DNA from: Schmidtea polychroa | Taxonomy: Eukaryota | NCBI GenBank assembly: GCA_044892525.1 | Contig: CM097886.1 | Span: 66,464,001 to 66,528,000 of the forward strand | Direction of reading: 5' to 3' | DNA length: 64,000 nucleotides | Part shown: piece by piece, positions 5,222 to 31,586 of the stretch | How positions within the stretch are numbered: position 1 is the stretch's first letter | Layout of the letters: every line of letters begins with the position of its first letter | Translations under genes and position numbers: made by a program | The notes under the pieces: generated by a model | Told to the model about the DNA's origin: nothing | Databases searched by the model: none | Seen by the model: only the letters and a program-made list of their open reading frames with translations

Positions 5222-5239
5222 TGGGGGCTCAGCCGGGAT
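5222..5239 (+). promoter_or_regulatory. Primer-binding site, tRNA-Pro type
   Basis: TGGGGGCTCAGCCGGGAT matches the complement of the canonical eukaryotic tRNA-Pro 3' end (TGGGGGCTCGTCCGGGAT) at 16/18 positions; it begins 7 nt after the LTR end. Confidence 0.85.
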
Positions 5240-8401: not shown

Positions 8402-11400
8402 ATGAATGTAGCAAAAACCGACGAATATAAAGAAAAATTTAGAGGCGAACCGTTCAACGGGAATGCGAACAAGTTGGCAACGTTCATAACCAATTTTGAA
8501 GTCTATATCGATGTGTGTGGATGGACATCCGAAGCAATTAGTAAACGAATGCCTCTGTTTTTGTGCGATAGCGCACTCGAAGTGTATCTGGAAGCAAAAG
8601 AAAGAAATACGAAATTAGACAATTGGGAAAACATCAAAACATTTTTGAGAAAAACATTCGGAGCCAGCAAACCGATAAATCAAGCGTTAGGTGAACTGGC
8701 AAGTAGAAAACAAAGAGCAAACGAGTCAATTACGTTATACGCAAGTGAATTACGAAGATTGGCAAAGAAGGCCATGAACGGAAACTTGCCGGAGGAAAAC
8801 CTAATTGGGTACTTCATAGAAGGACTACGCCGAGAAGAGGTAAGGGCCTCGGTGGGATGTCAAATGTGTAAAACACTAGAGGAAGCTATAGATTGGGCCA
8901 CAAGATGCGAACTACACCTCCCGGCACAAATGAATGTCATGCAAGAGGAAGGAAGAATCGCAACAGCAGCGGTGAAAACGGAAAATGGAGATAACAATAA
9001 TCATGAACCAAAGATGAATCAGTTTATACCAGGTGCGCATCAAATTTTCAAACCACCACAAGGACGATCAAACGGGAATAACAGTGAACGCAACAACTCG
9101 AACAATGGGAACAACTTTAATAATCGACGAAATATGAACGATAACAAACAATGCCGAACATGCGGTAAACCAGGACATTGGGATAGAGATTGTTACCGAA
9201 ACGCAAATTGCAATAGGTGTGGACGACGAGGACACACGGAAAATATATGCCAATCGAGAGGATGTTTTAACTGCGGGCAACCAGGTCATATCTCAAGAGA
9301 CTGTCGAGAAAGGAGCCAACAGCAACGACCACCACAGCGAAATAATAACTATGCACCAAATCCGCAACGACAAAGTAATCCTAGTGAGGGAAAGCAAATG
9401 AATGTGATGCAAGAAATTTCACAAATGAAGCAGATGATGCAACAAATGATGAGACCGAGACAAGAGCAAGTACCACAACCAACCCAGAATATACGCATGA
9501 TGAGAAGCACCGAGAATCTTAACAATTATGAAGTGCAACAACATGCACAAGAATGGCAAAGACTACAAGCTGAAGAAGAAAGGATAAAAAGAGAGCGAAT
9601 TCAGCAGCGACAAGAACAACCACTACGAATAAATATGATGAGGATGGTAAAGGAGATAAAGGAGCAATATTGTTACAATTACGGTAAAAATCCAAGAGTT
9701 GTACCTATGAGCGAACCAGAGAAACCGAAAGAAACAATTCCAGCAGCAAAAAAGGAAAATTCAACAACATCGCTAAAAGGAAATCAGAGAATTCAGAAAA
9801 TATTTTGGAAAAAGATAAAAGATAAAATCGAAAGAGAAAATGAGCAAACAAAAACAGAAGCAGAAGCAGAAAATAACGAAAATGGAAAACAGATCAATCA
9901 TCTAAAGCATAATATGATACGAGAATTAGACTCAGAGGAGCTAACGATACTCGAGAACAAAAAGTTAAAGAAGGTACCAAGAATGAGAAATTTACGAATT
10001 AATATGATGAGGACAACAAAGAAGGTGTTGTCAACAGATGACGATGAGGATTATGTGAGTAGCCTTGGTGGAGAAATGTTACAGTTAAATGAAAATATCG
10101 ACCAACTAAGAGAAAAGATCGGAGCAGATGAGGATGAAAGAGAAAGCGACGTGACAAGCGAAAGCGAAGACGAGAATATCGAAATGAAATTGAGAAAAGA
10201 AAGAGAAGAAGCGATAAAACAAGTAAAGGAAATACTTCCAGTGGTAGTAAGAAACCAGGAGTTCATCGACCTTATACCATATAAACGCTTCTTACAAAAG
10301 ATAATGAAACTAGAAAGAAACGAAAAAGATCTAATACCAAACGAGGAAAAAGCGATAATAAAGAAGTATATGGAAAAAATGAAACAAGCGGAGACAACAC
10401 GGTATGTAATAAAAATCGGAACGAGTAAAGGGCTCGAGAGAATATGGATAAAAAGCACAGTCACAGACGACCTTTTCGATTGGATAAGAGAACATTTGGG
10501 CAGCTCGAGAAAGAAAGAGTATTTATATCAATATCAAGGAGAACAAATTAAGCCAGACATGCACCTAATAGATGCATTGATCTGGCCAGGAGAAACTCAA
10601 ATATTGAAATTGTATAAAGAAAGGCAACCAGCAAATATTCATGAATGGGCTAAAGACGCCAAGGCCGAGTATGACTTTAACCTCAAGCTGAAGCTGGACC
10701 AAATAAAACAATGCACCTTGCGACGAAATCTAGATAAATTAATCAAACAAATTCAAGAACAAGTCGAAGATAACTGGGATTTACTCATAGCAAGACGAAC
10801 TCCAGACATGCATGAACTAATGAGCCGATTACGAGATACAGAATTGCTCAGGATGAGCGATTGGAGAACCATAAATTTGATCCACAAATATGGAAGGTTG
10901 AAAGAAACGCAACCGCAGAAATTAGAAATAACCATATGGTTACCAAACGAGGAGAAACGACGAATAAAGATGAGTAATCAGAGTACGGTGGATGACTTAG
11001 TAACCAAGATAAACCAAGAGATAACGGAAAAAGTACGAAGCGAGAGTAGCGACGGGATGATAGATGACGTAGTCATGATGTACGATAAAATAATATTACG
11101 GGCCGAAGACGACACCTCGCTAAGCGAAATGGGAATGTGGGATAATCATCAAATCATCAGAATATTGCCCATGGACGAATTCCGAACAAGAGATATAACA
11201 TACCAGAAAGAAATACGAGACAGGATGAAAACGCTATATCAAAAATCAGTAGAGATAATTGAAATTCATCAACAGTGGCTAAAAGAAAAAGAGCTTCAAG
11301 GAAAAATAAAGAAACTAAGTGTTAGATCCTGCAGACGAACCCCATGGGAAAGGACGTGGAATGCGGAAAACAAAGAATGGGAAATCAGGAAAGGGATTTT

Positions 11401-12007
11401 CGTGGAAACAGACATTGGTGAGATAGAAAGCGAATCAGAAGAAGAGGAAGATGAACCTCCAAAATACGAAGAGGACGAAATAGAATCGACATCGGACGAC
11501 GAAAGCGAAACGGATGTTACATCAGAAAGTGAAACGGAAACCAGACATATTCATGCGATGAGAAAGAAAGAACGCGAATATGCCGATATGGACAGCGAAG
11601 AAGCGATGGAAGCTCGAGAACGAGAAGAGAAGGAAAGATATAAACAATTAGGTGATATCTTAGCAACGGGAACAAAAAATCAAAAACGTCAAGTAATAGC
11701 ATTGGCTAACATCATCCTAAAGACATCAGAGAATATCCACAATCTAAGAGAAATGGCGAAAGCGATTGAGGAATACAGACAATATAACGAATGGTACCCA
11801 GAACAGCTAGAACAAATTATTAGGAAATGGAGAAACCAAGAATGGGCACAAGATACCCAGGAAAGGTATCGTATCCGAGTCAAGTATCCCGACAAAAGCA
11901 TTGAGGATACAGAAGTACATCCAACAACAAAGATCAGAGAGTTAAAAAAAGAAATTAGCATACGAAACTCCATTTCACCTACAACTATTCGGAAAATCGT
12001 TGGATGA
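8402..12007 (+). CDS. gag: Gag (Ty3-type capsid, three CCHC zinc knuckles) with a long extension containing ubiquitin-like domains; N-terminal part of a probable single polyprotein
   Basis: Capsid motifs (FNGNANKLATFITNFE..., KQRANESITLYASELRRL, YFIEGL); CX2CX4HX4C knuckles at 9152-9304; UBL-like segments at ~10400-10620, ~10919-11170 and 11864 onward. Confidence 0.93.
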   Translation: MNVAKTDEYKEKFRGEPFNGNANKLATFITNFEVYIDVCGWTSEAISKRMPLFLCDSALEVYLEAKERNTKLDNWENIKTFLRKTFGASKPINQALGELASRKQRANESITLYASELRRLAKKAMNGNLPEENLIGYFIEGLRREEVRASVGCQMCKTLEEAIDWATRCELHLPAQMNVMQEEGRIATAAVKTENGDNNNHEPKMNQFIPGAHQIFKPPQGRSNGNNSERNNSNNGNNFNNRRNMNDNKQCRTCGKPGHWDRDCYRNANCNRCGRRGHTENICQSRGCFNCGQPGHISRDCRERSQQQRPPQRNNNYAPNPQRQSNPSEGKQMNVMQEISQMKQMMQQMMRPRQEQVPQPTQNIRMMRSTENLNNYEVQQHAQEWQRLQAEEERIKRERIQQRQEQPLRINMMRMVKEIKEQYCYNYGKNPRVVPMSEPEKPKETIPAAKKENSTTSLKGNQRIQKIFWKKIKDKIERENEQTKTEAEAENNENGKQINHLKHNMIRELDSEELTILENKKLKKVPRMRNLRINMMRTTKKVLSTDDDEDYVSSLGGEMLQLNENIDQLREKIGADEDERESDVTSESEDENIEMKLRKEREEAIKQVKEILPVVVRNQEFIDLIPYKRFLQKIMKLERNEKDLIPNEEKAIIKKYMEKMKQAETTRYVIKIGTSKGLERIWIKSTVTDDLFDWIREHLGSSRKKEYLYQYQGEQIKPDMHLIDALIWPGETQILKLYKERQPANIHEWAKDAKAEYDFNLKLKLDQIKQCTLRRNLDKLIKQIQEQVEDNWDLLIARRTPDMHELMSRLRDTELLRMSDWRTINLIHKYGRLKETQPQKLEITIWLPNEEKRRIKMSNQSTVDDLVTKINQEITEKVRSESSDGMIDDVVMMYDKIILRAEDDTSLSEMGMWDNHQIIRILPMDEFRTRDITYQKEIRDRMKTLYQKSVEIIEIHQQWLKEKELQGKIKKLSVRSCRRTPWERTWNAENKEWEIRKGIFVETDIGEIESESEEEEDEPPKYEEDEIESTSDDESETDVTSESETETRHIHAMRKKEREYADMDSEEAMEAREREEKERYKQLGDILATGTKNQKRQVIALANIILKTSENIHNLREMAKAIEEYRQYNEWYPEQLEQIIRKWRNQEWAQDTQERYRIRVKYPDKSIEDTEVHPTTKIRELKKEISIRNSISPTTIRKIVG

Positions 12008-15000
12008 TAATGCAGATGTCGGAATAACACCCATGAGATTGGGGGAGATCAATGTATTGACAATGGCAGAAACATTGGGAAAACCGATTAAAAGGAAGAG
12101 CAAATCCAGTAAACCTACGAAAGGTAGCTTGAGTACACCAAGCCCTAACAAAGTGGCAAGTAAAACGAATGAAACCGAGGAAATCGAGGAAATTATATTG
12201 GAAGACAGCGATGAAGGAGCTGGAGAAAGATCACCAATTCTGGTAAGATGGCCGACAGGAGCCGAAATATGGACAACAAGCCAACCGTCAACTAGCTATC
12301 AGCAGCCAAATAAGCTGAGTATCGAGGAGATTATCGATAATACAACAGAAACCGAAACCGACGAACAATTCCAACGACAGAAAGGACCAACGAAAGCAAC
12401 ACCAGAAGGTCAAACGGACAAAATAATAGACGAATGGAACGAATGGCTGAGAAACAACGATAGCTCATTGCCAAGAACGGATAACGAGAGAAACCCGAAT
12501 TATGAAAATACAAGGGAAGCCGGAACAATGATGGAAAAACGGGCAAAAGGGAGACCCAAGAAGCAAGGAGAAAAACCGGAATTTAAAACTAGAGAACAAC
12601 TGAAACAAGAACAAGGACAAGTCAGATTAGAGAAACTGGATAAAATAGTGTGGGATCTAAAAGAGGCCCAGCCAACTATCGAAAGAGGCGAAAAATGGAT
12701 ACGAGAGCTAGTAAAAGATATGCTAATAATAACGAACCCACAATTGCGACGGTTATGGCAACGAAAAGTAGCAAGCGTAGACGCCAGACAACTATGGAAT
12801 ACAATATCCGGAATAATTCCGAAATTAATCAAAGAGAAGACAAAAACCACTAAAACCGATTGGGAAGAGACAAGAAGAGTAATTGAACAATTAACTTTAA
12901 ACGCAAACGACGACGAACATCATTTAGTAGTATTAACGTATCTAATGTACAATTTGATGGGATTAGCAGCGAGGAAAATACCTAACAAACAATTCGCAAA
13001 TCATGTAGAAATGACCGTTACAATCATCGAAAATACAATCGAACCACATATTATCCGCGCCGGTGGGTGGAAAAGACTCATACAAGCGCCACGAAAAAAC
13101 GAGCAAGAGAGATCAATGCAAATTCGGTTGAAGAAATTACTAAACAAGCTAGAATGGGAATTGCCATTGAAAGACCCAGCCAGCAGAAAAGCGTCGATTA
13201 ATTCACTAATGATGACCATGATGATATGGATGCTCTGCACCAGTGGAGCCGCGGGATTTACTATTTACGACTGTGACAATTCGATAATAGGAGAAAGATA
13301 CTCCCTGAGAGATATAGAGGAATGTAGACAGGCGTCTCCGAATAAATTAGATATAGTAAAGAAGAAAGTCTCCTATCACGTATACCAAGAATCAGATTTC
13401 ATTAGAACGCAAGCTAGAGAATGCGTAGTATCGAAGAAAGTGTTGGCATATTACTGTGGACAATACTCATATTCAACCCTCATATTACCTGGATTAGATA
13501 AAGAAATAGTACCTATACAACGGGAAGACTGTAAAGAGCTTTTTAGAACCGGAGCGATGAGAATCAGGGATGGAGTAACAATACACGGACAAAGCGGAAT
13601 GATCAAGACAGAAAGTATCTATGTCGCCGGACGAGTAAAATCAACGGATGGATCATGTAACGGAGGCACATATACGATCAGAGGAGAGGTGATATCAGGA
13701 GTAGTAGTAATTGAGTCCTACACAGTGGAGTTGAAGGAATACGAAGCACAATTCGACGCAAACAACTATCAAATGAAAACCAACCCAGCATGCAGAGCTA
13801 CGGAAAACGTGTGTAGAACGGGGATTTCGACTATAATATATGAAGCTAACACCCAAAAATGCCGACTCCAATTGTTAAAAAGTGCTCTATTCAATGAAGT
13901 AAAAGGAGAAATTTACGAAAACGAGGATGACGATGAAGAGAATGGAAACGTAAGGATGCGAAATGGGAAACCAGTTCCGCCATCCCCCAAAGAAAAGAGA
14001 CTCACAACCCAAAAAACACCAACGGCATTAATTACCGATGATCCAGACATCGGCATGAGATTCATTAGAGAAAAAGAGACCACCAAATGTGACAGTATAG
14101 TATACCGGACGAACTACGCAGGTATCTACATGTCAAGGCAAGTAATAGACCGAGCAGTGGGAAAGGTAGCAACGGAGGACGTAAAATTGTACCTGTATGC
14201 CAATAATAAGATGGACTTCTTGTTCCACCGAGGACAAACGACAATGCAAAAAGTGTATTACGATCTTATACAAAATGACTGTTCATTGAATAAAGAGATA
14301 CTAAAAACAAAATTAGCCATCGCAATAACACACCCAGATAACACAATGCCATCACTCCCGTTACCGGATGGACATTTTGGTAGAATGGTGGGAGAGGTAA
14401 TGTATACATATGCATGTACCAAGACATTTGCGCGACTGCCAAGAAAGCCCACAATTCCACCAGGGAAATGCGCAAACGAGTTGGAAATTAGTTACAAAGG
14501 GCGAAACAGATTCGTTCAACCCGTCACTCGAATCATGAACCCAATTGGATTTTATCCGAACACCTTTAACTGTTCAAATGCATACGGACCGTTATATGAA
14601 AAACCCGATGGGAAATGGATAATGTTACCAGTAAAAACCGAAGTACAAGAGCCTAAAAAGTTTGGACTAATAGAACTCGCAACAGAACAAGATTTCAAAC
14701 CAATTGATGTGTCAAAAGCAGGTATGTACTCACCAGAGGATTTAGAAACGGCACGATTAAACGTATTATTCCCAGCAAGACGGGAATCCATTCTATCGAA
14801 TATGGTTACCATAACTGGGGGAACGAATTTCCAGTCAGGCCCCAATTACGAACTATTATTGTCACCTGATCATTTTCAACAAGCCACGTCAAACATGATG
14901 AAAGCAATGTGGGGAAGATTTCTAGTGTTCGGTCAAATGATGGCAGGAATATTGGGAATCATTCTTATTATCCAGATAGTTAGAGTAATATTGACTCAAA

Positions 15001-18000
15001 TGTTAGCGTGTTTTGATATCTATAAGAGAGAAAAGAAGGTAAATTGGAAATTGATAGTAGGCTTTCTACCATTTTTGGCAAAAACAATGGTGTTGCACGG
15101 TCATTCTAAAGACATACATAGAATAAAACGATTGATCAAAATACTGACAAAAATAAAAGGAACTGACGAGGAAGTCGGTAGACGATTTCGGAAAACAATG
15201 TATGATGAAGCAACAAGGACGCAACTGAAAAAGAACAAACCAAAATTCTTAGACAGATTTAGGAATCGATCAAACAGCAGCGATAGTGATGATGACGACA
15301 ACGGGAATGACAAATACCCATATCCAAGTAGAAACCCGAATGAAAAGCCAATAGAAACAGCACCATATTGGGAGAAAGAAAAAACAAATACCTGGATAGC
15401 CAACGGAAGTTATATACCACCAGATATCGTTGGACAACAAACAGCTTTGACCATGACACAAAATATGTATCCACAGTTACCAAGTCAACCAGGGATGAAC
15501 TATATGCCGACCCGAAGAACGAAAAGTGTAGACCAAGCGGACGACGTAAGAACGATAGCAGTGATGAGTTCACCAGGAGGTGCGGCAGTAACAGTCATGA
15601 TCCAAATCAACGGGAAAGAGACAAGCGCCATGATAGATACCGGAGCAAACGTATCAGCAATAGCAATAAACCAAATACCCAGTAAATGTTGGAAAGATAT
15701 CGAACAAACAACTATCCATATTATTGCATGCAGTAAAGAAACCGTCGACGTAGTAGGAAGATGGTGGACTACGTTACGATATCAGGATAACGAAATTGAA
15801 ACGTATCTAGCGGTGATACCCAAACTGAGTGAACCATGTATAATCGGAACGGATTTAATGCCGGAATTGTTTAAGGAAGTAGTAATCGATTTAACAACAA
15901 TGTGTCTAAAAGACAAAATGGGTAGAATATGCAAGATGAACGCAATAATTAGATGTCCGGAGAAAATAATTGTACCCGCAAAATCACAGATGATATGTCA
16001 AATAAAAGTGGATGCAGGAATGGAAGGAGAAGTCATTTTTGAGCCAAGCAAATCATTCGAAAAACGACGAGAATTACCATTAGCAAGAGAAATAATAACA
16101 ATAAATGAAGACGGGGAAATACCAATTAACATCACAAATTTCGAGGAAGAAGACAAGATCATATATGAAAATGAAAGATTGGGTAGATTGACACCCATGA
16201 TAGACATCGAATTACCAAAAATCATCAACGAAACAACGAAAGCTGACGAATTATGGATAATTGACAGCACCTTGCTAACGGAAAAAGAAAAGGAAAGACT
16301 TCAACAATTATTGATAGAATATAAAGATATATTCGCAATTTCGGATTTGGATTTGGGAGCATGCGATGTTACATTACACGCAATACCATTAATAGACGAA
16401 ACTCCAATCGCACTACGTCCATACAAACTAGCAGAGAAGCAAAAAGAGATAGCCGAAGCTGAAGTACAAAAAATGCTAGATGCACAAGTGATCGAACCAA
16501 GTTGTTCGCCATGGCAATTTCCAGTAGTCATGGTGAAGAAAAAAGACGGTACTCAGAGATTCTGTATCGATTATCGGAAATTAAATGCAGTAACAAAAAG
16601 AGACACATACCCGTTACCAGACATCAATGAGATGTTACTTATGTTACAGGGGGCCGCATATTTTACATCTTTAGATCTGAAAAGTGGATATTGGCAGATC
16701 AAAGTCAAGGAGGAAGACAAAGAGAAAACAGCATTCACATTGGGCCGAGATCTATACCAATTCAGGAAAATGCCGTTCGGACTGACCAATGCCCCAGCAT
16801 CATTCCAGAGATGTATGAATTTTGTCACACACGGGATCAAGCAGTGTATGGTATATATTGATGATTTATTAATATATTCAGCAACTTTCGAACAACATTT
16901 GGAAGATATCAGAAACGTGTTCGTTCGATTACGACAATGGAAACTGAAACTTAAACCATCCAAATGTGATTGGGCAAAAGAAAAGGTTACGTTCTTAGGA
17001 CACATAGTGTCAGCAAAAGGCAAAGAACCAGATCCAAGAAACATAGAAAAAATAAAAACATGTCCAGCACCAAAAACTGTCACCCAAGTTCAAGAATTTC
17101 TCGGATTATGCGGATATTATCGAAAATTCATCAAAAACTATGCAGGTATTGCGAAACCAATACAGGAATTAGTGAAAAAGGATATTTCATTTATTTGGAG
17201 TGCAGAACAACAAAAAGCGTTTGAGACATTGCGCGATAAATTAATCGAAGCCCCAATACTAGTACATCCTGATTTCAAGAAACCGTTCTTATTAGCAACA
17301 GATGCAAGTGGATATGCAGCCGGAGCAATATTGGGACAACTCGACGAAGAAGGAAAAGAAAGAGTGATTGGATACTACAGTAGAACGTTTAAAAAGCACG
17401 AGAAAAACTATTCCGTAACCGAGAGAGAAGCGTTAGCAATCATACAAGCAATTAAACATTTTCGATATTTGTTATGGGGACACGAAATATGTATCACCAC
17501 GGATCATCAACCATTAGTATGGCTTGGTCAACACAAAGAAGCTTCAAGTAGATTGATGCGATGGGCAATGCAGTTACAAGAATATTCACCGTTCATAAAA
17601 TTCAAAGCGGGAAGAGCGAATGCCAATGCGGATTGTATGTCCAGATTTATCTTTCCAGATTTAGTAGATCACGAAATGCAACGAATATGTTTGATTGTAG
17701 CAGAAGATTTAGATTTTTGCCAATTACGGAAAGACCAACAAGAGGATACAGAGTTGAAGCAAATCATTGAATATGTGAAAACAGGGAAAGCAGAGGTATA
17801 TGAGAAAGATCAAAAATTGAAGGAGCATATGGATAAACATCGACATCGATATATTATCGAGAAAGATTGGTTATTGATAATGGATGGCGAAAAAAGACTG
17901 ATGTGCATTCCCGAGAATAGACGTAAAGATCTACTAACACAATACCATGACGGAAGACTCGGAGGACATATGTCATCTAAAAAGACGTTGGCACGAATGA

Positions 18001-21000
18001 AACAAAAATATTTTTGGCCTACATTGACCGAGGATGTAACGGAATGGGTGAAAAATTGCATAACTTGCGCAACCAGAAAAAACACGGGAACAAAATGGAA
18101 GGCACCATTAAAGCCAATGCCAGTGCCAGCAGAACCAATGACAATGATATCAATGGACGTAGTCGGTCCACTACCAGAATCAGATAGAGGAAATATATAT
18201 ATATTGGTAATCACAGATTATTTGACAAAATTCCCCGAAGCATTCGCAATGGCAGATCAGAAAGCAAGAACAATCGCAAAAATATTAGTAGAGGAAATAT
18301 GTTGTCGATATGGAACGCCGAAACAAATACTGACGGATCAAGGAACGAATTTCATGAGCGAAATAATGAGCGAAGTCACCAACTACTTCAAGATCGCAAA
18401 ATTAAGAACATCACCGTACCATCCACAAACTAATGGTATGACAGAAAGATTCAATGGAACACTGATTCAAATGTTATCAAATTATGTCGATCGTCATCAA
18501 CGAGACTGGGATGAATATATAAAATTATGTCTAATGGCTTACAGAATGTCGATTCACGCGTCCACAAAGATGAGTCCGTTCAAGTTGATGTACGGCAGAG
18601 AATGCAATATGCCAATGGATTTAGAATATCAGCCACCGATATCACAATACATGGAAATAGACGATTATGTAACCAAGTTCAAGGAAAGAATGCAGGAAAT
18701 CTGGGAAACCGCAGGATTGAATATAAAATTTTATCAAGAAAGTTACAAAGAGTTACATGATAGAAAGAAAAACGTCAAACAGCATACGTTTCAAACAGGC
18801 GATTGGGTGATGATTGAAACACCAGAATTAATTCCAGGAACCACCAAAAAATTACAACGAAACGGTAAAGGGCCGTATGAGATTCTATTCGTTGGAGAAA
18901 CTAATGTAAGAGTACGATTAGTGAACAACCCTTTTACAAGACCAATATACGTAAATGTTGCACGATGTAAGCCAATTCCGAAAACCGCCACCAGTCAGCC
19001 AGAAGGACGTACACTAACGACAAGATCACAAACGTATAGAATAAACATGTTACAGCAAATAAACGAACCAACAGGTAATCGATTAGGGTTACAACCATCA
19101 GAAGCCGAGGAAATCATAAAGGAAGTAAAAGTTAAAATGCCCGGATGGGCAGAAGACAGATTAGATTTTGAGATATTGGGAGGTCTGCTAACAATGATCG
19201 AAAATTATGCAAACCGAGAAAGAACACACCCATTGCTCAGGGTAGTTAAAAGTCAATGGCCTATATTATTCACGATCACAGACCATTACGGAGACACACC
19301 CCTGCACAAGCTTTTAAAGGTGGGTAGTAACGAACAGATATTAGAAACAATTGAAGCATTTCGCGATTGTAACATTTCGACAGATCAAGAAAACAACCAA
19401 GGTTACACTCCACTAATGATAGCAGCCAATCGGGATAAAGCTAAAGATATTATCATCGCATTACTTGAAACTGGGTCAAAGATAACCACACAAGACCACA
19501 ACCAGAAAAATGCACTACATCATGCAATCGAAGGGAAAAGTACGGAAGCCTTCATAATCTTAGTAGATCTATTATCATATGAGGATAATAGAGAGATAGG
19601 AAACATGTATGACGGGCTATTAACTGCAATCAAAGAGAAATTAATAACAATTACTGGAATACTAATTGCATGGAGGAACCCGATCAAAAACGATTATATG
19701 GTAGATATAAACGAAACATTTACCAAAGGAGAAAATACCTTGATGAGAGAAGCGATGAGAGGACATCACCTATTCGAAATTCCAAATCAACTACTACAAC
19801 GTGGCATAAAGTTCTCAAATCACAAAGACGAACAACTAATCAGAAAACGAATTATCAACTTCGAAAAAGCTATATCTCAATTTACCGATAAAGTACAAGT
19901 AAAATTTTGGGAAACCGTGAGTGTATTATATATGATGGAAAATATGAACAACATTCGAGAAACTTACCTAAGCATTATTCAAGTTCTAACGGCAGAGGAA
20001 CGCATTAACAATTCGAACAAGAAAAAGATAAAAAGGAAGAAAGTAAAAGCAAGAGAGTCTGAGGAACAAGTCGATCAACCAATAACCGATATAGCAACAA
20101 CAAGTAAACCAAAGACAATAAACTCCGACCAAGAGATAGTAGTACGTAAGGCTAAAGAAGTATTCTTTGAAGAAATGCAAGATCTATCCGATGAAGCGAT
20201 ACTAGCAAAAATAACCAAAACAGTACACACCTACGCAAGAGATCAGACCACAAATCTAGACATAGGAAAAATAAAAACATTTATACCACTAGCATTCACC
20301 TTACCAACAAAAGACTCAAGAACACCATTACAACAAGCCATTTTAGCAGCAAAAGAAAACAGAGCAATAACCATCATAAGAATCCTTAGAGACTTCGGAG
20401 AAGAATCTAATGCAAAAAATGAACAAGGAGAAACAGCAATGATGTATGCAGCCATAACAAATATACACCCGAAAACATTACATATACTACATCGATCGGG
20501 ATCAAGACTTGACGAAATATCAAACGAAGGAAATTCTGCCATGGATTGGGCAACAATACAACCAAACTTGGAAATGATTAGATTCATTTGTAAAAATGCT
20601 ACAAGAACTGAGGTAGAAAATATCTGTAAAAACACGTCACAGTTCCAATGGAACACGATACGGATGAACTTAGAAGCCATGAAGTTGCTGCTAACATGGA
20701 GAATACCACAAAGCAATAAATATGCAATAAATATAAATGAGTTCTACGAAAACGGAGAAAATGCTATGGTTAAAAATACACTAACAAAAGGAGGAACTCC
20801 GAAAATCATAATGATCGTATTAAACAGGGAAGATCTCAAATTCACGCAGAATCTAAACGAACAAAAGCGAATCGGGAAACATCGTCGGATACAATTAAGA
20901 GAATTAGTGAAAGAATGGAATAGAAAGAGACATGTAGCAACAGGCAGAAAGGAGTTCGAACTCGAAGCAAAATTAGCAAGAAACAGAGTGCTAACGGCAT

Positions 21001-22283
21001 ACCGCAGATTGTTGAATGATATAAATGTCGAGGACGACATTTTAAACGATAGCGGGGGAGATAAAGACGATAAAGACGATAAAGACGACGATAATAATGA
21101 AAAAGGTCGAAACGGGAATAAAGAGAAAGAGAAATCAGAGGAGAATAATCAAGAAAATAACGACGCGAGTAGGAAAAAAGAGGAAAATAACCCGAGAAAC
21201 CGAATGAAGCAAGAAGAAAAGACGAATAGTGGAAAACAGAGGGTATGCCTACTTTTTACCAACAAAGAAATGGAGACAAATATGATGATAATGATACTCG
21301 TACTAACAATGGTGGAAATGATAACAGCCCAGGGAGGAATGAGAACGATAAAAGAAGCCAAAGAAACGGAAAATAAGGACAACAAAGAGGAAGAACTAAA
21401 ACAAGAAAAGAAAAAACAAGTACAAGAGCAGCAATGGGATCTAAAAGAAGAATGGGATTTAAAAGAAAGGTGTATATTAGGAAGATGTATGTCTAGAGCT
21501 TATCAGAGACTAGTGTTAAAAAATGAAGATGCAGAACCAATAACGGAAGTAAGAATACAAGAAGCATACCGAAATCGAGAAGGAAAGAGAATAACGAAAG
21601 TCAAAGGGAAGGAGGTACACCTGGGAAAAGGAGGTGAGGTAGTGATAACGCAACTCCAGCCAAGAAAAGAACACAAAGTCTGCATCGCAAGATTAAGACC
21701 GGGTGAAGACTGTCTACAATATGTAATACAGCAACAACCTCCAAAAGAATACACAATATGCATCTGGAGAAAAGATACAGCGAGAGAATGTCGACGATAC
21801 CCTGGGAAAAGAGGGAAGAAAAGAAAAATCGATGATGAAAAAGATGAGCAAGGAAAACGCAAGAAAAACAGTGAGAAACATCAAGACAATTATGTATCCG
21901 AGGAGGAGATGGAGAAAATACAAAAAATGGCAAAGGAAGGTATGAACGAGGAAATAGCAAGAATACGAGGAATGATGAAAGGAAATGGCAAAGACGGTAA
22001 TCTAAAAAGCACAGAAGCAATATCAACAATAACGAGCAAGGAAAAAGCGGAAATTATAAGCATAAAACAGATGATGTGGATCAGCGGCATAATAATAACA
22101 GGGGCCTTTTTAATCATAACGGGGGGGACAATAAAAATAATCAAAGATAGACGGCATCACGGAGAACTAGAAATGGCCAGAATAAGAAATTTTCAACATC
22201 GTGTAAAACGACCAAGTAATATCAAGCAGGAACAGTGGGTGGAGGCCTGGAATGCTCAGCGCCCTCCAAGCTCACGTATATAG
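11946..22283 (+). CDS. pol: Env-Pol polyprotein (frame open from 11946; ORF track starts at TTG 12000): UBL end, AT-hook, Bcl-2-like, gB-like Env, PR, RT, RNaseH, IN, ankyrin repeats, FN3-like membrane protein
   Basis: Uninterrupted 3,400+ codon frame containing IDTGAN (15636), YIDD (16854), ATDASG...EREALA...TDHQPL, HxxxxxH...CITC, D,D35E ([19 protein letters not shown]) and a GPY motif. Confidence 0.95.
   Translation, partial: [3445 protein letters not shown]
12625..13085 (+). other. Bcl-2-like helical domain within the polyprotein
   Basis: BH2-like [14 protein letters not shown] (GGW at 13062-13070), preceded by a hydrophobic BH1-position helix [12 protein letters not shown] that lacks the NWGR signature. 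Confidence 0.6.
13209..15100 (+). other. env: Envelope glycoprotein of the chuvirus/Jingchuvirales G (herpesvirus gB-like class III fusogen) family, with internal signal peptide and C-terminal TM
   Basis: Signal [22 protein letters not shown], then Cys-rich ectodomain with chuvirus-G-like motifs (YYCG, [59 protein letters not shown]), then [22 protein letters not shown] TM. Confidence 0.85.
15567..15930 (+). other. Retropepsin aspartic protease domain
   Basis: [21 protein letters not shown] ... CIIGTDLM. Confidence 0.93.
16380..17650 (+). other. Reverse transcriptase + RNase H
   Basis: [71 protein letters not shown]. Confidence 0.97.
17690..19020 (+). other. Integrase (HHCC zinc domain, DDE core, GPY/F module)
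   Basis: [10 protein letters not shown]...CITC; [31 protein letters not shown]. Confidence 0.96.
19278..20790 (+). other. Two ankyrin-repeat clusters downstream of integrase (internal duplication)
   Basis: [24 protein letters not shown] (cluster 1); [25 protein letters not shown] (cluster 2). Each cluster is followed by a similar LxxWRxPxxNxYxxxINExxxxGEN motif (19662 and 20685). Confidence 0.85.
21282..22283 (+). other. C-terminal type-I membrane protein module: signal peptide, FN3-like Cys-containing ectodomain, TM, basic tail
   Basis: [17 protein letters not shown] signal; [16 protein letters not shown] and [11 protein letters not shown] resemble the FN3 L-x-P-x-T-x-Y-x-V strand; TM [21 protein letters not shown]. 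Confidence 0.55.
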
Positions 22284-22451: not shown

Positions 22452-22811
22452 ATGGAGCGAATAGGCGAGGAAGTAAACCACAGTACAACAACCGAGGAGA
22501 TGTGGAAACAACAATGTGCAATGTTAACTCAAGTGATTTCGAATTTACAGGAACAAGGACTCGCTGTACAAAGAAGCTTAGTCGAAAGTTTAAATAAAGG
22601 CTTCAATTATGTAAGAATAATCGAAGACCAACGAATGAAAATAGAACAAATGCAGCGAGAGATAGACCGAATATCACGATACAGCCAGGTGCAAGAAGAG
22701 GAGTTAATAAGAATCGCGGAAGAGATGGAGCGAGAGGAGATAGAAGACTGGTCAGAATGGTTAACCAACAGGGAAGAGGGCGGACAAGAGGCCGACTCTT
22801 CCAGCCAATAA
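22452..22811 (+). CDS. Small coiled-coil accessory protein
   Basis: ATG at 22452 in the 22428-22811 frame; heptad, E/Q/R-rich sequence. Confidence 0.65.
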   Translation: MERIGEEVNHSTTTEEMWKQQCAMLTQVISNLQEQGLAVQRSLVESLNKGFNYVRIIEDQRMKIEQMQREIDRISRYSQVQEEELIRIAEEMEREEIEDWSEWLTNREEGGQEADSSSQ

Positions 22812-22900
22812 ATATAACCTAAAATAGCAATGTAAATAAATGTAAATAAAAATACGAAACTGTACCAGTAACGAATATATGTATATATATAATTATAGAA

Positions 22901-24289
22901 ATGGATAAGCGACAACGAGAAGAATTCAGAGAAATTGTTGAACAAATCAGAAAGTCCACCACAATTCGAATACACAACCATGTAACGTGTGGAATATGCA
23001 AGAGCTTATTAAGAGAACCTCACCAAACCAGATGTGGATGCAGAATGTGCAGAGAATGTGTAGAGGAGATAATAAAGAAGGGACCACAATGGTGCCCAGT
23101 ATGCAAAGAAACAATGATAACAAGTTTGGGAGATACAAACGAAGATAAAGCAGCTGTAAAAGATATGTTGAATGCAAACCTAGGATGTAAAAACACCCCA
23201 TGTAATTGGCGAGGAGTGATATGGGAAGTGAGGCAACATATGGAGCAATGTGAGTATAAAATCAGTCAATGCAAACGTTGCCAAGAAGAGATTAAAGTCA
23301 ATGAAGAAGCAGAACATCAAAGTCGATGCGAAGAAAGACTAGAGAAATGCGAGTATTGCGGAGAAAACGACACCTGGAAGAAACTAATCAGTCAACATCA
23401 CAACATACAAGAGGAGAAAGTGTGCGCAGAATTCAGAGGAGAATGCCCCAACAAATGCGATAAACCCGGAGTAATAAAACTCGCTCAACATCTAAAAGAG
23501 TGTGAAAGAAAAAAGATAACGTGTGTGCTAGGAAAATGGGGATGTCCGAAACAATTACACCGAGGGGAATTACCCCAACATCTAGCAGAAAACGTATCAA
23601 CACACGCGGAAATATGGTCAACGGTATTACAGGAAAACGAAAGGAAAACCGAAAACTTAGAAAGAGAAATAGTCTCGCTAAAAGCGTTGGTAAAAGAACT
23701 ATTGGAAGAAAAGGAAGCATTTGAAGAGGCGAGAACAAGTACAAAGATACAGACAGATCTAGTAGAAACTAGCAACATTATGGTGAAAGAACTACATCAA
23801 AAAGTAAGCGAATTAAACCTCAACGAATTAATACCTACGGCTCCGTACATATGGAAAATAACGGGAGTAAAAGAGAAGATGCAGAGAGCGAGAAATGGAA
23901 AGGATACAACATTACTAAGTCCAGCATTCTACTCATGGAAAAACGGGTATAAAATGAAAATGAAAGCATACCCCAATGGGGATGGAAGTGCATACGGAAC
24001 GCATTTCTCAGTATTCTTCTTGATGTGCAAAGGGCCATACGACGAGTTAATAGAATGGCCATTCAAAGCAAAAATAGACCTCGCAATGATGAACTATCAA
24101 AGTATACACGAACAGAGTTTCCATACAGCGGGAAACCTCGTATGTTACCAAAGGCCCTTGGAAGAAGAAGGACCAGCAACTGGAGCACCAAATTTCATCC
24201 TACAGCGGAAAGTAGAAGACATGACGAGAAACGACACTATATACATAAAAATAGCGGTGAGGCGAGATGGGAAGAGTAGGACTGAGTAG
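22901..24289 (+). CDS. traf: Full-length intronless TRAF-family protein (RING, TRAF zinc fingers, coiled coil, MATH)
   Basis: RING CGICKSLLREPHQTRCGCRMCRECV...CPVC; zinc fingers CKNTPCNWRG..HMEQC; MATH YIWKI...SPAFYSWKNGYKMKMKAYPNGDG..YGTHFSVFF.MCKGPYD.LIEWPF. Confidence 0.95.
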   Translation: MDKRQREEFREIVEQIRKSTTIRIHNHVTCGICKSLLREPHQTRCGCRMCRECVEEIIKKGPQWCPVCKETMITSLGDTNEDKAAVKDMLNANLGCKNTPCNWRGVIWEVRQHMEQCEYKISQCKRCQEEIKVNEEAEHQSRCEERLEKCEYCGENDTWKKLISQHHNIQEEKVCAEFRGECPNKCDKPGVIKLAQHLKECERKKITCVLGKWGCPKQLHRGELPQHLAENVSTHAEIWSTVLQENERKTENLEREIVSLKALVKELLEEKEAFEEARTSTKIQTDLVETSNIMVKELHQKVSELNLNELIPTAPYIWKITGVKEKMQRARNGKDTTLLSPAFYSWKNGYKMKMKAYPNGDGSAYGTHFSVFFLMCKGPYDELIEWPFKAKIDLAMMNYQSIHEQSFHTAGNLVCYQRPLEEEGPATGAPNFILQRKVEDMTRNDTIYIKIAVRRDGKSRTE

Positions 24290-24510: not shown

Positions 24511-25548
24511 ATGACACAAGAAGGAACTGAAGCCCCAAACCACGAAACCAAAGTCAATAAAATCCATAAGGGAAAATGGGTCAAAGTAATGTTACAATTG
24601 ACGAACCAGACCCACAACCATCTCGAAGAGGCCAGGGAATACGAGAATAACAAATATCAGTGGTTAGTAAACAATTTAAGAGCCGAAGCAGAAGCATGCA
24701 AAAGAGCCTCTAAGTGGGCATCATTGGAAAACACTCGCCAAGAAGCGCACAGCCACTATTTAAAACAGTTAGTGCAGGAAGCACGGAAACGATTGACGGA
24801 CGAAAACACAAAACGAGAAGCAGAAAAACAAAAGGAAGGAAGGAAAATGAATCACCTATTGGCAGAAGCCCGAAACTGGAAGCGGCAGAACAAAGAGATG
24901 AAAAAAGAAATGAAAGAATTGCCTATGAGATTAGAATACGAAAGCGAACAAGGCAAATGGGAGGAAAATCTGGTCATAAGAGAAGAACTGAAACGGCTCA
25001 GAAAGATTGCGGCCCGAAGCCAAACATGGCAGACCAAAGCCATGGAATTTGAAAGACATCTAGCCATGAAAATCTCCATAAGGGAGCACGAGAATGCCGC
25101 AATGGAAGAACTGATACTTCAACAGTCAGGACGACTCGTGGAACTGGTGAATAAGGTCGCAGAACTAGAACGAGATGTCAACGGATACCAAGGAGCTCTG
25201 GAGCAGAGAAATATGGTACTGGCGGGGAAAAACAAAAAGTTAGAAAACGAAAGGAAAATGTATAACGAAAATCTTAAAAATCTGGAGATAGAGATCAAGA
25301 AATGGGAAAACGGCGAAAAAGCGGAAGAGCTAGAAAAACAGATAGAGGTAAGAGACGATGAAACCAGGTATCTAACATACCTGTTGGACGAGGAACTTAA
25401 CGTGTCAAGAGCACTAAGAGACGAAGTGCAAGAACTTAGAGCGCAGATTCCCCGGTACTACATCCCATTTGATCCCATCGCACTCCAATTACAAACGTCA
25501 GTAGAAAGCGATGAGGGATACGTAGGCCAGGAAGAGACCTTTGTATAA
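24511..25548 (+). CDS. Long coiled-coil accessory protein (345 aa)
   Basis: Uninterrupted ATG ORF, E/K/R/L-rich heptads throughout. Confidence 0.8.
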   Translation: MTQEGTEAPNHETKVNKIHKGKWVKVMLQLTNQTHNHLEEAREYENNKYQWLVNNLRAEAEACKRASKWASLENTRQEAHSHYLKQLVQEARKRLTDENTKREAEKQKEGRKMNHLLAEARNWKRQNKEMKKEMKELPMRLEYESEQGKWEENLVIREELKRLRKIAARSQTWQTKAMEFERHLAMKISIREHENAAMEELILQQSGRLVELVNKVAELERDVNGYQGALEQRNMVLAGKNKKLENERKMYNENLKNLEIEIKKWENGEKAEELEKQIEVRDDETRYLTYLLDEELNVSRALRDEVQELRAQIPRYYIPFDPIALQLQTSVESDEGYVGQEETFV

Positions 25549-25722
25549 AGATAAAAGGAAAGATAAAAAATATAAAAATCGGGACCTGTATCCCAACCAA
25601 AAAAATTAATGGTACAATAAAAGTATGAAAGGGACTGTAACCCTGATTATAAAATAACATATAAATGTATAAGTATAAGCCGCACTGTAGCGCAATTATT
25701 AACTATGTATATATTATAGAAA

Positions 25723-26424
25723 ATGAACACTGAAAACGGACAACCCAGCATAACATCTATAATCGAGTTAGAAGAGGGAGAAATTGAAGTTGATGAAGTG
25801 GAGAGGAAGAAAACCATCAAGGAAGAATTACAAGAAGAGAGACAGGAAAACGAAAGATTAGTTGAAAGGTGGAGAGATAATCGAAAAATGATTAAAGTAT
25901 TGAAAAGAGAATATATCCTGTTAGAAGGAGTAAAGAAAGAAGTAGAGGAAGAAAACGAATGGCTTCACGAGCAAAGAAAGCGAGGGAGAAATTGGGAAAA
26001 GATCGCGGAAGAATTATGGCAGGAGAGGGCCAGTCGAAAGGCCGACGAAGTGATTAGTGACTATTGGAAAACCGAGGCACGGAAACACCAAGAAAGCCTG
26101 AAAGGGTTACAACTCCAACTACACCAAAAACAGAAAGAATGTGAGATAATGAGACGAATGAACAACAAATACCAGGAAATAGACAACGAAGGAGACGGGG
26201 AAAGGGAAAATGATTTTCTACAGATAATGAACCATAGAAACCTCGAAAGAGCAACACAAGAAATAAAAGCACTAAAAGAAAAAATAATAACCCTAAGGCA
26301 ACAGTTAGACGAAAGAGACAAACAATTAAAAGTACTACCCGAATTGAGAAAACGAGTAATAAAAGCAGAAATGAGAGTGATGAGAACATCCGAGAAAACC
26401 CGTAAAAAGAAAACCCGGCAATAA
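25723..26424 (+). CDS. Coiled-coil accessory protein (233 aa) with basic C-terminus
   Basis: Uninterrupted ATG ORF, heptad-rich, ends KTRKKKTRQ. Confidence 0.8.
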   Translation: MNTENGQPSITSIIELEEGEIEVDEVERKKTIKEELQEERQENERLVERWRDNRKMIKVLKREYILLEGVKKEVEEENEWLHEQRKRGRNWEKIAEELWQERASRKADEVISDYWKTEARKHQESLKGLQLQLHQKQKECEIMRRMNNKYQEIDNEGDGERENDFLQIMNHRNLERATQEIKALKEKIITLRQQLDERDKQLKVLPELRKRVIKAEMRVMRTSEKTRKKKTRQ

Positions 26425-27347: not shown

Positions 27348-30300
27348 TGTTGGGCTAAAACGTGGAGTTTCGAAAACTGGAGCGAATAGAAAAGTAATCC
27401 TTGAAAAATAAACGAAATAAAATAAAAATATAAAGTACCATCAAATTCTCGCTAATAAATCAAAAAGGAACAATAAAATATCAATAAGAGAATAAGAATA
27501 AGTAAAACAAACTAAATAAAACCCAATAAACCCCTTGAGATTTAGAAATAAAGCGATTTAGGACCCAGCAGATGAAATAGAATAAAATAAGTAAAAAAGT
27601 GACAACAAATAAAAGAGAAATTTAAGAAATAAATAAAAAATAAAACTATCTTTAAGTCTAATTAAAACAAAAAATTATATTACAATAAAGTAGCAATAAA
27701 TCCACAGGAAAAATAGGAGGAAAATAATAAAAATAAGAAAATAAATAAAATAATAATAGGAAATAAGTTAAGTCATTAAAATCTAATATATTATAATAAA
27801 AAACATAAAAATAATAATAAATAGAAAAAATACAAACAAGTCGTGTCCTGATTGGACGAAAAATAATATATAAGGAACGGAAAATATCTGTAGATTACCA
27901 CTTTTAAAAAATTTTTCTACAGGTAAACTTCGGTTCGTTATATACTACCACTTTTAAAAAATTTTTCTACAGACTTGACAGATTTCGGAACCTTTAATTA
28001 TCCTACAGCGAACTAGTTCAGAGATTACCAAACCAAACCGAGGAAGAAATATATAGAGGCCAAACTACAAATCCATTCGGGAAAAATTTTAAATTCAACC
28101 GATTTAACTTCAGTTTTCGAAACTCAAGGTATGCCTCGACAGTTGTTTTATTTATGGTTATTAGTTTAATTTAGTTAATCATTATAAATATAATAAAACA
28201 ATTTCTTATAATAAATTTATTTAAATGAAAAGTTGCCTTTCTTCATGGTACCGACGACTGTACCATCTGAGAGCTCCCAGTATGATGTGGACGAGTTGGA
28301 ATTGCACTGCAGTAGAGGACACCACCGTGGAAAGGTTGGTATGCATAAGAAATCACGAACATGCTGAAAAGAGAATGTGATATTTGTAGAGAGTGATATT
28401 TGTCATATTAGAGATCCACCAAGGAGACGATGAGGTTTCGATCATGTAGGAGGAGCAACATCATACTCGGAGATCCAAATGATATGGTCGCCGAGTAAAT
28501 TTTATTTATGCATTTTCTATCATTCAGTTTGATTATTATATTGTTGATTTGATTGAATGGAAAAGAGTTGATTGGTCCCTCATGACGGTGCAAGGAGGTG
28601 GCAGCAATGAATGCCTTCTTGGGTGTGTCGTGAGGGGTGAAGAAACTCAGTAGGTGGAACATCCAGTTAATAAATGACCGTTCCTTCATCAAGCGCGATC
28701 GTCTGTAGAGCGTACCATCGGTTCATTTAGTTAAATCGAGATTTCCAGTAGATGTAGAGATGATTTGAATTCCGAATGCAGACAATTCAGAGCGAGATAG
28801 GCAGTGACGTTCGTACAGATTCGATGATAATCCACATAGATAGGAGGAAAATTCTTTTCGTGATATTCAGCCGGTCAATCGACGTAGTTAGGAAAGAACG
28901 GTGTCGACCATAGATTGCAAGTAAATCCAACGATTTTTCGGTGACGCTCTGCGTTTGCAAGGTTCTGTCTGATTTGTGCCGTCATGATGTTAGCGGCTAC
29001 ATCCATTGTCGATGTACTCTTACGATTTGATTGTCGTCCTTGAGTCACCAATGCCAGTGATAAAGAATCTCTCGCTGACAGGGAAGTAAACATCTTGTAG
29101 TGAAATTATCAAAATTCTTACTTCGAGCCCGCAGACAGTAGTTGTCAACGATAACGAAATCAGTTGATTTGCATTAGCCTGCGTAGAGTTAGTCGACAGG
29201 AGATATCTGATAACGTCCTGGAGAAGGAGATAACATGTTAACTTTTCTGGGAAAATGTCAAATGAATAAGCTGATAGTCATTGATCTGAATTAATATCGT
29301 AAAAGGAAATTAGATGATATTGTTGAGCTTACCCAATAATCTATGAAGTTGTCGCCCACTCAGATTGATTAATCTGATTTTTCGATTCATCTACGGCTGC
29401 TTATTTGAGGAATCTATTACGCAACCGCTAATATTCCGACTTGAGCATGCACATACACACGCACCACAGTCAAATATGCATAGGGCAGTGTAAAAGGAAA
29501 TCAACGATTTTGGTGATGTAATAGCGGCATGATGGTATAAATTTCTCTAGAATAGCGAGATAATAGGATGAAGTAAGGGGATGGATTTCCCCTACACAAC
29601 TCGATATACAATAATTTATCATAACAGCATAAACCATCATTCGCGGAGATAGCCAACATACAGTTACAGATACCACCAGGAGTAATGACACACCTACACA
29701 GTCAATCATAATGCATAATCACAAGTAAACGTTTTCCATGACGACGATTTTCGACGCGTTATTGGAATTAATTAGATGTAGATTAGAGCTGAATTTTCAA
29801 CTGATTACACGATCAATTCCATAATTTTGAACGAGATAAAAACATAAATAATCTATTCCGTCGCCGTGAATTATTTCTCTGTAATGTTAGGCAGGCCTAC
29901 CTCGACGAATTGCCATAATGATATCGGCAAAAATTCTTAATTAAAATATACTAATGGGAACAAGGTTGAAGGGGATAAAGTAAAAGACGGGTTTTACCTG
30001 GGAATGGCCCATCCGAAATTAAACTCAAAGGGCGAGGTTTGTGTAGAAAGAATTTTTGGTATACGAATCCCCGTTTCCTTTTCTTAAATTACACGAATCA
30101 GGTGAAGAGATTTGAATGTTTGCAACTGAATGACTGCGTATAGAGATGGATGAAGAAGTGTGTGGGTCATCGTTGGGTGGTATGTTTGATCAAACTCCAA
30201 AACCATGCCCAAAAATTTGATTTTTCTTCACACTGATAGAGGTTTCTTCGAGTAAATATAAACAATGATTGATTTTCTAGATGGCTACATCGTCCAACAA

Positions 30301-31586
30301 CGCCAAAGAACTTCGCCCGTGTTTTTCTTGTGCGGACAAGAACGCGGATATCGCCCAACTCCACTTATATATCGGGGCTCTCAAAAAGAGAATTGATCTC
30401 TATGAAGGAACGTGGTTCTCCCCGCCACAAATGAAAGAGGAACGCAAGAAAATTCTCCGATTAGAGCATTGCAGGGACAGCCTGCTAGAGGAAAGCCGTT
30501 GTCAGCGGCTCACCATCAAAGCACAGTCAGAAGCCCTCCATAAGGTATATACGGAGGCAGAATTGGCTAAGCGGGTGCGAGAATTCCCCCTTCTGGATGG
30601 GACGAATGTCTTTCCTCGTCACCACCCGTCTCCTACATCTTCCGGCTCGCACTGCCAGGGGCACGGCTCACAACTGCCGCCCATTCCACCCCCGGTGTTG
30701 TCATGTCACCAGCCAAAGATAGGTGGACCTACTGATCCCATCGTAGCTCCAATCTTGGTAGCACCAATCGGTACCACGAACACCGAAAAACCCCCGACTA
30801 CCCGCAAACGGAAACGGCCAACTCGAGCCGAGAAGAACCAAAAACGCCGAGATGCGATGACAGCACTCGAGACGTCCTTATCGGCGGCGAAATCAAAAAT
30901 CCAAGAGATAACGTCCTCCCATTCAATCCCCTCAAAGGAAGTCTTCCGCATTGTTCCAGCTGAGGGCATCAAATACATTGTAGATAGCCGATTACCGGTC
31001 GACATAGATGAGATACTGGCCGATGGGGATAACTTTGTTTAATGTGATGTAAAATTGAGCTTGATTTCCTCTTCATTGAGTTGTAAATTATCTCGTGAAT
31101 GTTGCTAATGTTATATCTTTTTGACTGTTGTTGATCTGTTAGTAGTAATGATATTTTTATCGTTTCAGTGTCAATAAAATTTTCTGTTTGATTTTAGTTT
31201 TGTCGAGCTTTCATATATTTGTTTGTGCAATTAGAGTAGATGAGATAATGCTGCGGAATGAAGATAATTAAGGTTGAAGGTTGTTCCTTTGGACCAGGAT
31301 CAGACCGAGTGACACGCATGTATATGGGTAAGTCCTTCTAAGGCACCGTGGGACCCGAACTGAGAAAGGGTTAGGAGTAGTCCTAAGGCAGGGGCTCACC
31401 TGCTAACCTTTTCCGACCCGTGTGAGCAGCACCAACATGGAACATCACCATGGGCTCATATGTGGGAATATGCAATCAATCATTTGGAGTATGTGTAGAA
31501 AATGTATAACGGAGCCATGATGCTTGATAGGTGTGATGGAAAGGCATGTATAATTTTTTTTTTTTTCTTCTCCACATACGCCAACA
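27348..31586 (+). repeat. 3' LTR (4,239 bp)
   Basis: Copy of 973-5214. The only differences I saw by eye are A>G at 5123/31498 and T16 versus T13 near the end. Confidence 0.97.
30281..31042 (+). CDS. Second copy of the LTR-encoded orphan protein (3' LTR)
   Basis: Identical translation to 3906-4667. Confidence 0.7.
   Translation: MATSSNNAKELRPCFSCADKNADIAQLHLYIGALKKRIDLYEGTWFSPPQMKEERKKILRLEHCRDSLLEESRCQRLTIKAQSEALHKVYTEAELAKRVREFPLLDGTNVFPRHHPSPTSSGSHCQGHGSQLPPIPPPVLSCHQPKIGGPTDPIVAPILVAPIGTTNTEKPPTTRKRKRPTRAEKNQKRRDAMTALETSLSAAKSKIQEITSSHSIPSKEVFRIVPAEGIKYIVDSRLPVDIDEILADGDNFV

Follow-up and report, generated by a model that had tools for sequence, protein, structure and literature searches.

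The window analysed here, 64,000 nucleotides of Schmidtea polychroa DNA, contains a complete TRAF-like gene inside a long retroelement, and the question is whether this gene is a captured signalling adaptor that serves the element or host sequence that is only copied along. A preliminary description had taken it for a retro-captured adaptor with a His-to-Cys change in its RING, used to modulate immunity or cell death, and had suggested that element mobility contributes to the TRAF expansion of the host. The gene sits within the LTR pair of a complete element of 30.6 kb (973-31586), with the following features in window coordinates:

973..5214, + strand: 5′ LTR, TG...CA, 4242 nt, preceded by the target-site duplication CAGT at 969-972
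5222..5239, + strand: candidate primer-binding site, from the sequence
5674..6153, + strand: 159-aa ORF with an IAP-like RING at its C-terminus and without BIR (Pfam)
8402..12007, + strand: gag with CCHC knuckles; its C-terminus has a ubiquitin-like match, which is weak (Pfam)
11946..22283, + strand: frame with mononegavirus-like fusion glycoprotein, protease, RT, RNase H, integrase and ankyrin repeats (Pfam)
22452..22811, + strand: 119-aa ORF directly upstream of TRAF, which also precedes TRAF in the Burro1-type family
22896..22898, + strand: TAG, separated from the ATG by two bases; candidate acceptor site for splicing of a subgenomic mRNA, from the sequence
22901..24289, + strand: full-length TRAF accessory gene, 462 aa and stop, in an unbroken single frame
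22988..23104, + strand: RING with eight Cys ligands (C30, C33, C45, C47, C50, C53, C65, C68)
23186..23605, + strand: five putative TRAF-type zinc fingers, residues 96-235, placed by eye on Cys/His spacing
23594..23812, + strand: coiled coil (TRAF-N), residues 232-304, a predicted continuous helix
23846..24259, + strand: MATH/TRAF-C domain (Pfam, PDB alignment)
24511..26424, + strand: two accessory ORFs of 345 and 233 aa; purifying selection, no Pfam match
27348..31586, + strand: 3′ LTR, 4239 nt, followed by CAGT at 31587-31590

A single base and one 3-nt gap are all that separates the two LTRs, and the insertion is therefore very young. The candidate primer-binding site presumably resembles that for tRNA-Pro. 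The mononegavirus-like env (PF24664, E 3e-72) lies between gag and protease, and Ank_2 (E 4e-17) follows the integrase. With a size above 30 kb, LTRs of 4.2 kb, a 4-bp target duplication, env and ankyrins, the element can be classed by the published layout as a Burro-type giant Ty3/gypsy element. It is not Burro1 proper, as the polyprotein of about 4800 aa with MATH and the BIR cargo are found in a sister family and not in the window.

Several other features were recorded along the window. The gag and env-pol frames differ and overlap by 62 nt (11946-12007); the sister family has one polyprotein instead. Each LTR holds a 253-aa ORF (3906-4667 and 30281-31042) whose ATG immediately follows a TAG; Pfam does not recognise it, and locus L229 contains a relative with 36 % identity. 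A tandem repeat of about 80 nt lies between the RING ORF and gag (6737-7170). The 345-aa ORF (24511-25548) shows a dS near 2 among close copies, against 0.4-0.5 in the other genes, which may reflect recombination between lineages or an alignment artefact. Outside the element we noticed an FG-repeat, nucleoporin-like frame (37716-39170; a host exon judged by eye, no Pfam match), a host exon of a flavin amine oxidase (47455-48618; PF01593, E 5e-25) and, at a distance of 5 kb from each other, two tandem arrays of a related A+T-rich repeat with a 21-nt unit (55841-56134 and 60852-61512).

The TRAF gene starts 618 nt past the pol stop (22283), with the 119-aa ORF in between. Pfam recognised a MATH domain (residues 316-453, E 2.4e-25; TRAF-mep_MATH, E 2.9e-25), a TRAF-like zinc finger and a RING (residues 30-68, E 9.5e-5). 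The PF21355 score of 89.5 bits, against a cut-off of 27.4, identifies the MATH/TRAF-C domain of the TRAF adaptor family. The first homologue search returned only 12 unnamed TRAFs at 24-29 % identity. Sequence matches in PDB were TRAF3, TRAF2, TRAF1, TRAF5, TRAF4 and TRAF6, with E down to 2e-28, and the RING-zinc finger order at the N-terminus is recovered in alignments to TRAF6, TRAF5 and TRAF2 constructs (E to 1e-15). The AlphaFold2 model, built on an 18-row alignment, has a mean pLDDT of 87 and a pTM of 0.39, and its best fold matches are the TRAF domains of TRAF2/3. A single helix predicted over residues 232-304 (pLDDT near 90) aligned to the TRAF3 coiled coil, as in a TRAF-N region. Translation, Pfam, PDB matches and the model thus confirm an intact RING-zinc finger-coiled coil-MATH gene 3′ of pol. 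The replacement of CGH by CGC was also borne out: QTRCGCRMC of the window TRAF aligned with QTPCGHRFC of TRAF6 and with the corresponding motifs of TRAF5 and TRAF2. The fourth ligand, His in TRAF2/5/6, is Cys47 (codon TGC, 23039-23041); the domain has RING spacing with eight Cys and departs from the canonical C3HC4 type, in which His is the fourth zinc ligand.

In a search of the own genome, all 92 scored places of the window lineage were full-length with 92-100 % amino acid identity, and 84 had no internal stop; since 92 were scored out of 1872 candidates, this is a lower bound. A host TRAF query revealed a second lineage with at least 84 further places (92 rows minus 7 host genes and 1 known copy), and all 15 fetched copies had the same element context and were 69-71 % identical to the window TRAF. 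The third lineage is of Burro1 type. Its TRAF, 487 aa and 32 % identical to that of the window, also reads CGC and holds the same position, behind pol and the small ORF; there are at least 88 copies, and 88/88 scored places were 99-100 % identical to their own query TRAF. The counts for the three lineages (at least 92, 84 and 88) come from places ranked by score and are biased to intact copies. In a sample anchored on the upstream DNA, TRAF was intact in 30/30 fetched loci; nine of the other 10 rows were places already in the 92-copy set and the last had a frameshift. Hundreds of copies over three lineages exclude the possibility that the gene is present in one copy only. A representative of the third lineage is:

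G000:C1:96632000-96667999 (L184-L187): Burro1-type element with RING ORF, polyprotein, small ORF, full TRAF and BIR-RING gene

The polyprotein of this type has 4791 aa and contains MATH and env, and the RT-integrase region of the sister family is about 65 % identical to that of the window element. The 88 near-identical Burro1-type TRAF copies point to a very recent burst. In one element copy (L101:2716-8082), a deletion fuses TRAF in frame with the end of pol into an open frame of 1789 aa.

For the analysis of selection we fetched 70 of the 92 window-lineage copies: the top 30 by score, 20 of the 23 ranked after them and 20 of the 23 at the bottom. Cys47 was retained in every one (TGC in 58, TGT in 12) and all eight RING ligands in 67, while five copies carried in-frame stops. 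The selection values are pairwise counts against natural copies, and the copies were chosen by score, which favours intact ones. Among the 11 most distant window-lineage copies, dN/dS was 0.07-0.13 at dS 0.26-0.44. In 64 distinct copies, variants common to at least three copies comprised 74 non-synonymous, 136 synonymous and 1 stop, and private variants 106 non-synonymous, 101 synonymous and 6 stop; the neutral ratio of non-synonymous to synonymous changes derived from the observed mutation spectrum is 2.67. Between the window and second lineages dN was 0.17 and pS 0.71, with constraint on all domains. The RING (0.11-0.14) is as constrained as the rest of TRAF, and MATH (0.05) is the most constrained domain within the window family. 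By gene, dN/dS was 0.08-0.12 for TRAF, 0.01-0.02 for RT and 0.09 for the ankyrin module. The TRAF is under purifying selection and is not decaying; the dN/dS values of 0.07-0.13 exclude neutral decay across copies. This selection shows that the element lineage needs its TRAF; it does not show that host immunity or cell death is the target.

We then compared the gene with the TRAFs of the host, which are only 25-32 % identical to it; one of them is 71 % identical to TRAF-2-like A of Dugesia japonica. Cys is the fourth ligand in 18/18 non-element RINGs of the host TRAF clade. Ten of these belong to single-frame TRAFs at single or paired loci (L102, L114, L115, L116, L117 with two, L118, L188 with two, and L189); an eleventh such gene, L190, has no RING within its frame. 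The other eight come from clustered loci, of which nine were fetched and seven had RINGs, all eight of them with Cys. The TRAF4-like host gene L109 has the His ligand and is split by introns into several exons. Of 132 database homologues, 61 lacked a corresponding motif, 65 had His as the fourth ligand and 6 had Cys; Dendrocoelum TRAF-4 and TRAF3-like proteins from Amphiura and Patiria are among these six. In the echinoderm TRAF3-like proteins P0037 and P0047 the same His-to-Cys change apparently arose independently. Because Cys occurs in the host clade, in Dendrocoelum and in echinoderm TRAFs, the change is old, shared and tolerated. Its presence in 70/70 copies and in host genes rules out an element-specific or RING-killing change. 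The change had been presented as a trait of the captured copy, but it is the normal state in the host clade to which this TRAF belongs; the Cys RING is a trait of the whole triclad TRAF clade and not of the element. Nor does the lack of introns prove retro-capture, as the closest host genes equally run from RING to MATH in one frame without coding introns.

As to origin, trees were computed from hand-picked subsets of copies and homologues. The full-length tree (44 rows, 452 columns, mixture model) unites the nine element rows in one clade (100/98) inside a flatworm clade with Dugesia TRAF-2A and Dendrocoelum TRAF-4 (100/98), with the elements as weak sister to all host members in the best tree (88/75). 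The RING+MATH tree (36 rows, 247 columns) likewise recovers membership in the triclad Cys-RING TRAF clade (100/100); here the element clade (90/70) is nested among host genes (94/92) and the clustered host genes group with L189 (100/100). In a MATH tree of 69 rows, for which the tool issued a long-branch warning, the MATH of the polyprotein joined the element TRAFs (95/92), which suggests that it may have arisen by duplication within the element. None of the sampled host genes was nested inside the element clade in any of the three trees. An origin from an echinoderm-type Cys-RING TRAF was rejected (AU p 0.0001). A tree with the elements as sister group of every host gene in the clade was not rejected (AU p 0.082). 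Third codon positions of the element TRAF have A 0.48 and T 0.14, compared with A 0.35-0.38 and T 0.30-0.37 in host TRAFs, and these element-like positions would fit a long residence in the element. Since the element TRAFs form one clade inside or beside the host clade, a single old capture from the host Cys-RING TRAFs is the simplest and likely reading, with the direction not proven. The captured gene is older than the split between the Burro lineages.

An expansion of TRAFs in planarian hosts is described in the available text of PMC6109357 and PMC7586133. Our genome contains dozens of two-exon host TRAFs (L226-L234), clustered on C2 around 1-5 Mb and 105-124 Mb; the genes have a Cys RING, a shortened zinc-finger region and MATH, and often form head-to-head or tandem pairs. 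The best 150 of 1551 MATH candidates, sorted by hand on frame length and profile range with some fetched, comprised about 56 host-like matches, mostly from the C2 clusters, and about 94 that look like element cargo. A derivation of the clustered host TRAFs from the window family was rejected on RING+MATH (AU p 0.003) and not rejected on MATH alone (p 0.085 and 0.118). Grouping all elements with the cluster was also rejected (AU p 0.017), but not once L189 was added (p 0.28). The genes that neighbour TRAF in the element were found beside it at 0/21 host loci, several of which carry unrelated or inserted element fragments. Element mobility, which had been offered as a source of the expansion, therefore does not explain the clusters: they are two-exon genes in a clade of their own, and no sampled host gene falls inside the element clade from which these lineages would have supplied them. 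Given the 0/21 loci, the true host expansion is separate from the three element lineages, and cargo can inflate TRAF counts; the numbers of TRAF and MATH genes given for planarians include both host genes and cargo of elements.

Regarding expression, a YAG stands 0-3 nt before the TRAF ATG in 53/53, 33/33 and 5/5 distinct contexts (three probes, the first two overlapping), compared with 47/504 background ATGs, and a comparable AG precedes most other accessory ORFs of the element. TRAF could thus be translated from a spliced subgenomic mRNA that uses this YAG. Contigs of four runs guessed to be RNA matched 30, 17, 8 and 0 of 30 bins, but they are short and uncontrolled and do not count as evidence, and no spliced joint into the TRAF gene was found in them. 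In one run, contigs bridge a stretch of about 3.6 kb that includes TRAF (22801-26442), without GT-AG ends, possibly an internally deleted variant of the element.

We also inspected the residues by which TRAFs bind their clients and by which TRAF6 acts as a ligase. In the available text of PMC6125299, the serine triad of TRAF2 is hot spot 2 of the groove and R393/Y395 are hot spot 3. The triad S453-S455 is replaced by Leu-Val-Cys in the window TRAF and by Gln-Leu-Cys in the second lineage; R393/Y395 correspond to Lys355/Tyr357 in the window and to Arg/Tyr in the second lineage, and S467/C469 to Thr/Ala in the window. Host TRAF-2A retains Ser, Arg, Tyr and Ser at these groove positions. In the host genes L117a and L117b, too, the first of the three serines is missing, so that some of the change in the groove may be older than the capture. 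On the RING side, TRAF6 I72 and R88 are retained as Ile32 and Arg48, whereas L74 and F118 are replaced by Lys and Asn, so the Ubc13 ligase residues of TRAF6 type are incomplete. According to the accessible part of bioRxiv 2023.06.19.545655, L74 contacts Ubc13 and F118 serves dimer-dependent chain synthesis.

How should these results be read together? That the TRAF is a neutral passenger, merely copied along with a successful element, is hardly credible. Young copies are intact whatever their function, some of the fetched copies do carry stops, and constraint is weaker on private variants (pN/pS 0.27) than on those common to several copies (0.14); the dN/dS values nevertheless refute the idea, the frame has stayed open at a dN of 0.17 between lineages despite near-saturation at synonymous sites, and the gene has persisted across the three lineages, even at an identity of only 32 %. 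The proposal of a captured, functional cargo gene is instead supported by the hundreds of copies and by purifying selection. A transfer in the opposite direction, in which an ancestral element TRAF gave rise to the intron-poor Cys-RING TRAFs of the host as settled copies, is improbable as well, though it draws on the best full-length tree and on the fact that one or two exons suffice to encode RING to MATH in the host clade while TRAF4-like L109 takes several. Against it stand the nesting of the element among host genes in the RING+MATH tree, the absence of host genes from the element clade, the missing element flanking genes at the host loci, and host TRAF-2A itself, which has a shorter branch and equivalents of R393, Y395, S453 and S467. 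It is equally improbable that a Burro-type element was the route by which the TRAF2/3-like family of planarians arose, with essential TRAF-2A/B and the clustered expansion among its members; in that case the TRAF of the element would be sister to every Cys-RING TRAF of the host, and settled intron-poor host copies would have replaced an intron-rich ancestor.

With a captured and needed gene as the preferred reading, its mode of action has to be weighed. One option is a stand-alone ubiquitin ligase, whose MATH would select a host restriction factor or an element protein for ubiquitination by the RING, with no signalling of TNFR/TLR type. The constraint on the RING, equal to that on the rest, and the retained Ile32 and Arg48 agree with such an enzyme, a changed groove implies new clients, and the element has a further IAP-like RING and a weak ubiquitin-like match; we nevertheless consider it the less likely option, as the TRAF6 positions for Ubc13 binding and chain synthesis are lost. 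That loss argues only against TRAF6-like activity, since host TRAF-2A-type genes lack the L74 and F118 equivalents too. Because the groove is changed, MATH is the most constrained domain and L74/F118 are not kept, we favour an adaptor: the MATH groove without serine triad makes it probable, with moderate confidence, that the protein is a retargeted trimeric adaptor of a Burro-type element which would tilt host cells to survival or weaker defence. It would trimerise through coiled coil and MATH, and the all-Cys RING should bind two zinc ions and fold normally. The groove would be expected to take clients other than the Px(Q/E)E motifs of TRAF2/3/5, and the protein, instead of being a ligase like TRAF6, could serve as a scaffold or join host TRAF-2A/B-type proteins as a mixed partner. 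The strongest constraint on MATH would fit a new, fixed partner. The role in immunity or cell death that had been proposed is plausible; knock-down of host TRAF-2A/B leads to cell death and lethality in the available text of PMC7586133 and PMC8807557. A predicted complex between the TRAF trimer of Burro1 type and the BIR encoded next to it scored 0.00, which is evidence for neither side, and this BIR matched XIAP BIR2, cIAP BIR1 and NAIP alike, so that its type cannot be assigned. In mammals TRAF2 works with cIAP.

Compared with known TRAFs, the element protein has the domain architecture and MATH fold of vertebrate TRAF2/3/5 and TRAF6 and keeps the equivalents of Tyr395, Ile72 and Arg88. Vertebrate RINGs are C3HC4 or C3HC3D, whereas the element TRAF has an eight-Cys RING and lacks both the serine triad and TRAF6 L74/F118. 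Planarian TRAF-2A/B and Dendrocoelum lacteum TRAF-4 fall in the same clade with the same domain order, with the Cys ligand where a RING is on the available record, and the host TRAF-2A/B-type genes of this genome share the single coding frame. Unlike TRAF-2A/B, to which it is 25-32 % identical, the element TRAF has a long branch, element codon bias and no serine triad, and it is multi-copy and mobile. No relatives were found among 215 pattern matches in metagenome contigs, and an Atlas search returned ordinary TRAF clusters only.

Burro1/GYPSM1 and Burro-2 to -4, as described in the available text of PMC6431247, are longer than 30 kb and have LTRs, a CCHC gag, a mononegavirus-like env between gag and protease, and ankyrin repeats, and the window element is alike in all of these. 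The same text reports MATH_TRAF cargo in two positions: within ORF1 for Burro1 and, for Dugesia tigrina, in an accessory ORF that lies upstream. It is thus already known that Burro elements carry TRAF-domain and apoptosis cargo. The window element differs from Burro as described there in that the cargo which follows pol is a complete RING-zinc finger-coiled coil-MATH gene, and the family of the window element differs from Burro1 in having neither polyprotein MATH nor BIR and in keeping gag and env-pol in separate frames. In the literature searched we found no account of the full-length TRAF gene, its selection or the clade-wide Cys RING, though the full-length gene may be described elsewhere. 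A close parallel is B-IAP of Burro1, a captured RING-bearing regulator that was tested as anti-apoptotic and protects stem cells, according to the accessible part of PMC13465017. Both B-IAP and TRAF are captured cell-fate cargo, and in the Burro1-type family the BIR gene directly follows the TRAF orthologue. The function of B-IAP is experimentally reported, whereas that of TRAF is proposed here from sequence, in a family that has no BIR gene. TRAF is a second captured cell-fate gene beside the IAP of Burro1, kept even in a family without BIR gene, and it bears on how Burro elements manage their host.
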